Virus record (IMG/VR): IMGVR_UViG_3300032006_002642
Length of the DNA: 6,185 nucleotides
DNA from: a virus
Strand: one strand, 5' to 3'
The translations under genes and the position numbers were made by a program. Below the pieces are notes generated by a model that made no database searches, was not told where the DNA came from, and saw only the letters and a program-made list of their open reading frames with translations. Of the stretch, positions 2,451 to 2,763 are shown piece by piece. Positions within the stretch are counted from its first letter, which is position 1. Each line of letters begins with the position of its first letter.

Positions 2451-2541
2451 GCGCTTCGCATAATGGCCGACGTTACGTTTAGTTCGGCGAGGATCATGGC
2501 ATTTCCGAGCCGAATTTAATGTAACGTGGATTATGCGACGC
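2451..2541. other. Pair of inverted dif-like sequences forming an imperfect ~90-nt hairpin; candidate XerCD-dependent attP
   Basis: On the + strand, 2453-2483 reads GCTTCGCATAA-TGGCCGACG-TTACGTTTAGT. On the minus strand, 2514-2541 reads GCGTCGCATAA-TCCACG-TTACATTAAAT, which has the 11-6-11 layout of dif. The arms can pair as 2456-2464/2530-2538, 2470-2476/2521-2527 and 2483-2488/2509-2514. Confidence 0.55.
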
Positions 2542-2763
2542 GCTCTCCAGATCGACACATACGCCATCAAAACCGCTGAACTGTTTGCACCTGGTCGAAA
2601 GGGTGCCGATGCGGTTTTGTGGCTGCTCGATGACTATCCGCGACTGGTGGCCGAGGTTCGCGAGCTTCGCCGTCGCGTCGATCAGATCGACCAGGAGGAG
2701 GCCGATTTCGATGCTCGCCTGGAAGCCCTCCAGAGCGCCTGCCGCGCTCTTCTCGACCTTTGA
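2533..2763 (+). CDS. Hypothetical 76-aa protein, acidic and probably helical / coiled-coil; function unknown
   Basis: This is the only ORF in this interval whose product looks like a real protein (MRRALQIDTYAIKTAELF...VAEVRELRRRVDQIDQEEADFDARLEALQSACRALLDL). The overlapping frame 2585-2860 is Arg/Ser/Cys-rich junk. The Shine-Dalgarno is weak (GGA 2-3 nt before the ATG). A terminator-like hairpin lies downstream. Confidence 0.5.
   Translation: MRRALQIDTYAIKTAELFAPGRKGADAVLWLLDDYPRLVAEVRELRRRVDQIDQEEADFDARLEALQSACRALLDL

Follow-up and report, generated by a model that had tools for sequence, protein, structure and literature searches.

A conserved 76-residue protein gene is fused to the dif-like attachment hairpin of Stutzerimonas and Pseudomonas inoviruses

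To determine whether a short open reading frame (ORF) that begins inside a dif-like recombination site is a gene, and what such a gene might do there, we analysed the 6,185-nucleotide viral sequence IMGVR_UViG_3300032006_002642 from IMG/VR (the window, by which we mean the whole stretch). The window is a complete, circularly permuted inovirus genome with a unit of 6,058 bp, positions 1–127 being repeated at 6059–6185. The reading frame in question, ORF76 (2533–2763, plus strand), encodes a protein of 76 amino acids (MRRALQIDTYAIKTAELFAPGRKGADAVLWLLDDYPRLVAEVRELRRRVDQIDQEEADFDARLEALQSACRALLDL), and its ATG (2533–2535) lies inside TTATGCGACGC (2531–2541), the reverse complement of the dif XerC arm GCGTCGCATAA. 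This frame and the placement of its start codon in an inverted XerC arm are as reported in a preliminary description of this DNA, which saw almost no Shine–Dalgarno (SD) sequence; we find none. By itself ORF76 is not significant, because an ATG is present in any inverted XerC arm by construction and open frames of this length are common: we estimate from base frequencies that 76 codons stay open by chance in about 6% of cases in DNA of this composition, and long spurious ORFs abound in this GC-rich genome. What makes ORF76 real is its conservation. Comparison with related sequences indicates that ORF76 and the hairpin in which it starts most likely form one integration cassette across about 100 filamentous phages and mini-satellites of Pseudomonas and Stutzerimonas.

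Described at first as an orphan with no assignable family, ORF76 is a member of phrog_13909, a phage protein family of unknown function, and matches its hidden Markov model over the full length (residues 1–76 on profile positions 4–81 of 81; E = 4.4e-28). A search of 5.8 billion proteins recovered 69 homologue clusters at 90% identity, nearly all exactly 76 amino acids long, mostly encoded on contigs of 6–8 kb and in some cases on Stutzerimonas chromosomes; in total, homologues number more than 100 in Stutzerimonas and Pseudomonas inoviruses. With a profile search run without filters on 1.84 billion representatives, about 30 further small-protein clusters came to light, down to about 24% identity, and no fusion of the family to other domains was seen. 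All 80 homologues in the first-fetched loci are intact at 76–78 amino acids, as are about 97% of family copies. In 68 unique coding sequences, dN/dS is 0.21 overall, 0.08 for codons 13–46, 0.30 for the C-terminal coil and 0.50 for codons 6–12; synonymous change is saturated (pS 0.57), and the annotated frame is the only one that is always open. Because the homologues are intact, dN/dS is low and only its own frame is always open, ORF76 is a genuine protein-coding gene under purifying selection, the outcome of the comparison of conservation and dN/dS among relatives that the preliminary description had proposed. The opposing idea, in which no functional protein is made and the frame is open as a by-product of constraints on DNA or RNA, could appeal to an ATG dictated by the arm, to the frequency of long spurious ORFs and to the lack of an SD sequence, but it is effectively refuted by dN/dS values of 0.08–0.3 against saturated synonymous change, by a length held at 76–78 amino acids over 68 unique sequences in the single always-open frame, and by a confident AlphaFold2 (AF2) model.

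The DNA in which ORF76 starts is one side of a foldable phage attachment site (attP). Its left dif-like site (attP-L; 2453–2483, plus strand) comprises the XerC arm GCTTCGCATAA (2453–2463), an over-long centre of 9 nt, TGGCCGACG (2464–2472), and the XerD-like arm TTACGTTTAGT (2473–2483). A distal stem-loop follows (2484–2513, plus strand) with an invariant GGA (2491–2493), T2497 and TCC (2504–2506). The right dif-like site (attP-R; 2514–2541, minus strand) has the canonical 11-6-11 layout, GCGTCGCATAA-TCCACG-TTACATTAAAT, and holds the ORF76 start codon. attP-L and attP-R are inverted relative to each other on one strand and pair in the folded plus strand; the arms GCGCTTCGCATAAT and ATTATGCGACGCGC are 93% complementary, and the region is predicted to fold as single-stranded DNA at −29.2 kcal/mol (z = −5.6). 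Across 64 aligned non-identical hairpins the XerC arms are invariant, the XerD-like arms fall into at least four classes in which both sides change in concert, and 13 of 32 pairs carry compensatory double changes, from which it follows that the hairpin structure is under selection. Unlike neighbouring stem pairs, the GGA..T..TCC element at the tip of the distal stem does not covary; GGAnnnT is present in 83 of 86 distinct hairpins, and the element usually lies 38 nt 5′ of the ATG. It reads like a −10 element (GAnnnT) but is accompanied by no −35, and its invariance could reflect a protein recognition site, a priming site or the remnant of a promoter.

Gene and hairpin are linked in both directions. 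Wherever a locus includes genuine upstream sequence, the ORF has its start codon in or at the right XerC arm (xTTATGCG), at a fixed distance. In the converse test, a scan of IMG/VR for the hairpin pattern yielded 118 distinct hairpin-plus-downstream sequences; leaving out 14 cut by contig ends and 2 that are opposite-strand reads of palindromic hairpins, about 102 were evaluable, and a full-length family ORF stands behind 99–100 of these. Frameshifts or stops in relatives that keep the dif-like sites, which the preliminary description had named as evidence against the gene, are confined to two frameshifted copies (one copy of the tandem pair in locus L151, and L153), and a single hairpin, in L095 from a low-GC host, is without an ORF76-type gene. 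One hairpin subgroup starts at a second ATG 5 nt downstream (TTATGCGATGCC). The architecture is retained in homologues of 24–36% identity from other hosts (L083–L089), and in the low-GC lineage L084/L085, in which the arm differs (TTAGCCATAA), codon 2 changes accordingly (ATG-GCT). An accessory cargo gene, or moron, as suggested earlier, does not fit this pattern: the gene is present behind about 97% of hairpins, its GC content at the three codon positions is unremarkable, scanning revealed neither promoter nor terminator and PADLOC returned no hit.

Prophages identify the hairpin as the attachment site. On a chromosome of S. nitrititolerans (L004), the ORF76 homologue is the first gene of an inovirus prophage. 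The left junction of this prophage runs from host flank through CTTCGCATAAT, the phage centre, the XerD-like arm, the loop and the inverted site to the ATG, and its right end is a canonical dif, ...GGCGCTTCGCATAAT-CTATA-TTATGTTAAAT. The same layout is seen in six independent prophages, which begin on the left with the hairpin and ORF and have the canonical dif GCTTCGCATAATCTATATTATGTTAAAT 5.8–8.8 kb rightward, and several tandem arrays occur at dif. In L011 and L014, the window's own centre sequence (GGCCGACG / CGCCGACG) is joined to the same host flank as in L004, and all three junctions read host flank, TTCGCATAAT and phage centre. Because L011 and L014 join the window's centre to host flank, the crossover with host dif is located within or next to TTCGCATAAT of attP-L, at the border of arm and centre, as expected for XerC top-strand cleavage. 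In CTXphi-type elements the plus single strand serves as substrate, and an exchange by XerC alone is resolved by replication; here the 9-nt centre of attP-L would speak against a double-stranded substrate. Together, an inverted dif-like pair, a selected hairpin, a dif regenerated at one end with a hybrid site at the other, and the failure of Pfam and PHROG scans of the window genes (Rep, G5P-like, coat, DUF2523, Zot and small ORFs) to find a phage integrase give the hairpin the integration geometry of CTXphi, in agreement with the published definition of CTXphi-type integrative mobile elements exploiting Xer (IMEX; PMC4246890).

Since the crossover falls in the left XerC arm, ORF76 keeps the whole hairpin and becomes the first prophage gene. 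The preliminary description had foreseen that recombination would separate the gene from, or join it to, different upstream sequence. Its neighbour does switch, from zot in the free genome to host DNA, with zot at the opposite (right) end of the prophage as laid out in L004; the crossover, however, lies about 70 nt 5′ of the ATG, and the hairpin stays with the gene. The slot is likewise distinct from that of the ctxAB cargo to which it had been compared: ctxAB precedes attP and comes to lie at the right prophage end, whereas ORF76 follows the hairpin and comes to lie at the left.

Outside the cassette, these genomes are mosaic. Among 63 distinct cassettes with 600 nt available on both sides, the upstream flanks form 37 clusters and the downstream flanks 25, whereas 59 of the 63 cassettes fall into one. 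The adjoining regulators are of unrelated types, with a minus-strand phrog_5642 protein in the window, HTH_3 in L086 and a ribbon–helix–helix (RHH) protein in L151. Phage blackswan219-6 (MZ474488; L003) is about 88% identical to the window in nucleotide sequence over g3p–zot, yet its positions 5130–6110, facing window 2447–3073, hold a wholly different module with GGTACC iterons and three small ORFs and with neither hairpin nor ORF76, which shows a clean modular exchange at the zot stop codon. The cassette also persists in two mini-elements, each present as two tandem copies at dif: one of 2,175 bp (L088, 5940–10290) that adjoins a Tus gene and ends in TTCGCATAATGTATATTATGTTAAAT, and one of 1,654 bp (L151, 4300–7522), which includes the frameshifted copy mentioned above. 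Both contain the hairpin, an ORF76-family gene, an intergenic region, an RHH-type regulator (RHH_1 confirmed in L151) and a protein of about 114 amino acids, and both are without Rep, zot and morphogenesis genes. Because flanks are mosaic, repressor types vary and mini-elements keep the gene, nothing but the hairpin in cis and the host accompanies ORF76 throughout. Mosaic genomes and minimal satellites alike inherit the cassette as one piece.

The product was expected to be acidic, helical and heptad-like, and this description holds. ORF76 has 15 acidic and 12 basic residues and is net acidic; the AF2 model (pLDDT 90.8) predicts a coil at residues 1–8, a helix at 9–18, a loop and a single long helix at 24–75; and hydrophobic residues recur at a spacing of 3–4 (38, 42, 45, 49, 52, 59, 63, 66, 70 and 73). 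A conserved helix–loop–helix core, KTAELxAPGR..DAV.WLLDDYPRLVAE.R.LRRR, precedes a variable heptad-repeat helix that extends to residue 75 and is probably dimerising.

Searches with profiles and predicted structure, proposed earlier as the way to identify the protein, lead to phrog_13909 and to no match with a fold or functional family. Foldseek comparison of the AF2 model with PDB and BFVD produced no match with E below 3, the sole matches of a PDB sequence-profile search were coiled coils, designed or natural, and Pfam, NCBIfam and PADLOC contained no significant family for ORF76, PADLOC giving no defence-family match. Family proteins (P0003, P0010, P0011 and P0022 among them) carry the NCBI/UniRef name 'DASH complex subunit Dad3', after a eukaryotic kinetochore protein; this misleading name is a sub-threshold coiled-coil artefact and is corrected here. 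Dad3 and ZapB reach best E values of 0.0016–0.005 in a minority of 35 members, below the Pfam gathering threshold, and bZIP_1 scores 14.7 bits in the window protein against a Pfam cut-off of 27.6. An RHH fold is suggested by the pattern LxIP..LV..A.LY..GR..DAV, by an AF2 monomer that is compatible with RHH and not diagnostic of it, and by weak hhalign links (probability 53–61%) to small unannotated proteins, flanked by iterons, that are encoded in the L001 and L003 regulatory regions. Profiles do not confirm it: RHH Pfam profiles match none of the 35 members, whereas the true RHH in L151 is readily detected, and we treat an RHH fold as conjectural. Homology to XacF1 ORF12 was rejected at an hhalign probability of 0.1%. 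Membership in the XafT/PSB15 family, after the analogy with XafT of TLCphi drawn in the preliminary description, was likewise rejected: there is no DUF3653 match in the window protein or the 35 members, and no helix–turn–helix (HTH).

How ORF76 is expressed may be constrained by the inverted repeat of attP. No SD-like 4-mer occurs in the window hairpin or in any of 86 distinct family hairpins. In RNA containing the whole repeat, the AUG is predicted to be fully paired (P(unpaired) 0.0; minimum free energy −61.5 kcal/mol for 2441–2600), whereas in RNA starting in the loop its predicted P(unpaired) is about 0.9, which makes plausible the earlier suggestion that expression depends on folding. Three routes were considered and set aside. 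A sigma-70 promoter inside the hairpin would have the −10-like GAnnnT, but by eye no −35 or extended −10 stands at an allowed spacing, and a promoter scanner found none there either. The zot stop codon lies 4–13 nt 5′ of the stem in free genomes, and we reasoned that translational coupling to zot termination would be insufficient, as a terminating ribosome ought to melt no more than the first ~5 bp of a stem longer than 25 bp. A hairpin promoter acting on the incoming single strand is ruled out because the plus strand has mRNA sense.

A functional tie of ORF76 to Xer integration best fits these observations. We propose that ORF76 would be the protein half of a two-part integration cassette whose DNA half is the CTXphi-type attP. 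The two inverted dif-like sites would fold in the plus strand into a hairpin that mimics host dif, and host XerC would exchange one strand pair with the chromosomal dif at the left XerC arm. ORF76, a small and probably dimeric coiled-coil protein with a highly conserved N-terminal helix–loop–helix core, may act on the folded attP, on XerCD assembled there, or on both; it could stabilise the hairpin–XerCD–dif synapse or the pseudo-Holliday junction, or it could channel newly made plus strands to integration and not packaging. The same inverted repeat might limit the supply of ORF76, with the SD-less AUG masked in mRNA unless a transcript begins within the hairpin itself. What ORF76 binds, in which direction it affects integration and how it comes to be expressed are matters that we infer.

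Reached by elimination, our favoured, tentative reading is therefore that ORF76 is a dimeric accessory or control factor for the folded attP, acting on the hairpin and/or the XerCD complex. Several points weigh against it. As evidence of shared function, the linkage is weaker than it appears, since overlap of gene and arm alone would keep the two together. The searches above linked the protein to no recombination factor, by homology or by fold, the net acidic charge does not favour general DNA binding, and inspection by eye revealed no covariation between N-terminal residues and XerD-like arm class. CTXphi and the related hairpin in L095 manage without such a gene, and the scanner found no promoter or intrinsic terminator for ORF76. 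A bolder version, in which the proteins of the family would be the first cofactors encoded by phages specifically for single-stranded CTXphi-type Xer integration and the inverted dif repeat serves as attachment site in DNA and as translational gate over the SD-less start in RNA, is conceivable and, in our judgement, somewhat unlikely.

Three other functions deserve consideration. ORF76 might be a phage regulator, either a lysogeny or transcription switch or an anti-repressor, whose link to attP would be positional, arising from the overlap and from expression as first gene by host read-through. The protein is small and dimeric-looking and sits at the edge of the regulatory region, the same region from which the weak hhalign links in L001 and L003 come, and XafT/P15 are described as regulators in lysogeny modules (PMC12715192). 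A regulator of this kind would have to stay constant beside repressors and operators of unrelated types (phrog_5642, HTH_3, RHH); moreover, ORF76 matches no DNA-binding domain, RHH included, and has no conserved operator-like repeats beside it, so we consider this unlikely.

The invariant, non-covarying loop GGA..T..TCC suggests sequence-specific recognition, and a hairpin-binding replication or assembly factor could exploit it, for example by marking the folded plus strand for complementary-strand priming or packaging, in analogy to PSB15. Integrative inoviruses do encode small hairpin-binding proteins such as PSB15 (bioRxiv 10.1101/2024.03.19.585677), and the gene is kept by satellites, which need a helper for replication and packaging. 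We nevertheless judge such a role quite improbable: a separate intergenic region has conserved hairpins of its own, L084 is without GGA/TCC and encodes the same protein as L085, similarity to PSB15 and DUF3653 is lacking, and the adjoining morphogenesis modules are highly variable. A host-directed or competitive function, expressed from the prophage edge, could keep out rival elements that integrate at dif, act on the terminus or divisome machinery, or bring about lysogenic conversion. In any read-through transcript the AUG is predicted to be sequestered, PADLOC gave no match, and unlike morons the gene is almost never absent and is of ordinary composition. What points to the host is that ORF76 is the first gene beside host DNA in lysogens, that dif is a crowded integration site with tandem arrays and that 10 of 35 members have weak coiled-coil matches to ZapB, although ZapB, Dad3 and bZIP alike score under the Pfam thresholds and look like typical coiled-coil noise; we rate this possibility as low as the preceding one.

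The accessory-factor reading of ORF76 has precedents among factors linked to attP, none of which it duplicates. Like the attP of CTXphi, RS1, Ypfphi and CUS-1phi, the site described here is an inverted dif-like pair that folds in the plus strand, integrates with no integrase, regenerates dif at one end and forms tandem arrays (PMC4246890); it differs in that the right XerC arm contains the start of a conserved gene that moves together with the hairpin, an arrangement that is not described for CTXphi, and in that the present hosts are Stutzerimonas and Pseudomonas. XafT of TLCphi, and the RstR-XafT-attP lysogeny module of Vibrio IMEX, likewise place a small protein beside attP as a fixed terminal prophage gene that is inherited with it (PMC9226527, PMC12715192). 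XafT, however, has an XRE-HTH and a DUF3653 domain, neither of which ORF76 has, and activates XerD on a double-stranded attP without a good XerD arm, whereas ORF76 accompanies a single-strand hairpin. XacF1 ORF12 / Cf primary immunity determinant is an inovirus gene that overlaps attP and whose deletion delays integration and destabilises the prophage (PMC5666396). By contrast with ORF76, it encodes a 152-residue HTH/membrane protein on the minus strand without sequence similarity to ORF76, and its attP, one double-stranded dif-like site, lies within the gene, which integration splits; ORF76 is not split. Host Endo III (Nth), an accessory protein for single-strand Xer integration that binds the pseudo-Holliday junction and stabilises it in CTXphi, plays the kind of role proposed for ORF76 (PMC3442271), but it is a host enzyme of unrelated fold, and a phage-encoded equivalent is hypothetical. 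PSB15 of Xanthomonas integrative inoviruses is, like ORF76, a small phage protein and binds a specific DNA hairpin, as ORF76 might; unlike ORF76, to which it has no similarity, it is a basic, membrane-binding DUF3653 protein needed for assembly and not for integration.

CTXphi-type integration is the textbook case of a virus hijacking chromosome-dimer resolution by means of folded single-stranded DNA. To our knowledge, it has so far been thought to need host proteins only, XerC and XerD with the help of Endo III. A gene welded to the hairpin through deep divergence, mosaicism and reduction to satellites of 1.6–2.2 kb suggests a missing component or control step supplied by the phage. If the gating reading were true, the output of the cofactor would be tied to the transcription start site and to the state of the element as replicative form, single prophage or tandem array. 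Whether single-strand Xer integration has a phage-encoded cofactor can now be tested directly in Stutzerimonas, a host that grows in culture, with a phage genome of 6 kb. The combination of a left hairpin with phrog_13909 and a right dif also offers a practical way to find and delimit inoviruses and satellites integrated at dif in genomes of the Pseudomonas group. Lysogeny modules linked to attP are already known as a concept from Vibrio (PMC12715192); what is new here is a conserved gene fused to a CTX-type hairpin, and the literature that we searched describes neither this family nor Stutzerimonas CTX-type inoviruses nor any protein gene fused to such a hairpin.

The remainder of the window, with genes named by Pfam and PHROG scans, has the organization of an inovirus. 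The closest deposited genomes are inoviruses from bird cloacal swabs, and protein homologues point to Stutzerimonas (the Pseudomonas stutzeri group) as the probable host. On the 5′ side of the cassette lie a g3p-like gene that starts at ~5627 and runs across the window ends to 945 (with Gly-rich GGxGD-type repeats at ~300–480), a DUF2523 gene (945–1253) and zot (1253–2446, plus strand; Pfam Zot, phrog_197), the last morphogenesis gene. The 3′ side continues with an intergenic region (2764–3073), a small regulator gene on the minus strand (3074–3340; phrog_5642), Rep (3414–4676; Phage_CRI and G2P_X_C), a G5P-like protein (4775–5122) and coat protein B (5346–5534). Although outside the cassette, the intergenic region is its constant context in this phage and probably holds origin or packaging cis elements. 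Within it, a conserved 42-bp stretch with the hairpin GGGTCCACCATCTCTAATGGTGGAC (3006–3047) is 97.6% identical to non-coding positions 6692–6733 of PQ144888 (Pseudomonas aeruginosa phage NEU2023), and a similar motif occurs in the Rep-less mini-element L088; this is likely to be an origin or packaging cis element common to otherwise unrelated phages.

Palindromic TGCATGCATG repeats, operator-like in appearance, lie at 3307–3322 and 3380–3395, on either side of the divergent region between the phrog_5642 regulator and rep, and the sole sigma-70-like promoter found in the window (3332–3361) is placed between them. Two tiny hydrophobic ORFs, one after rep (4673–4760, ~27 amino acids) and one before the g3p-like gene (5601–5672, ~23 amino acids), may encode minor virion or membrane peptides similar to g7p and g9p.

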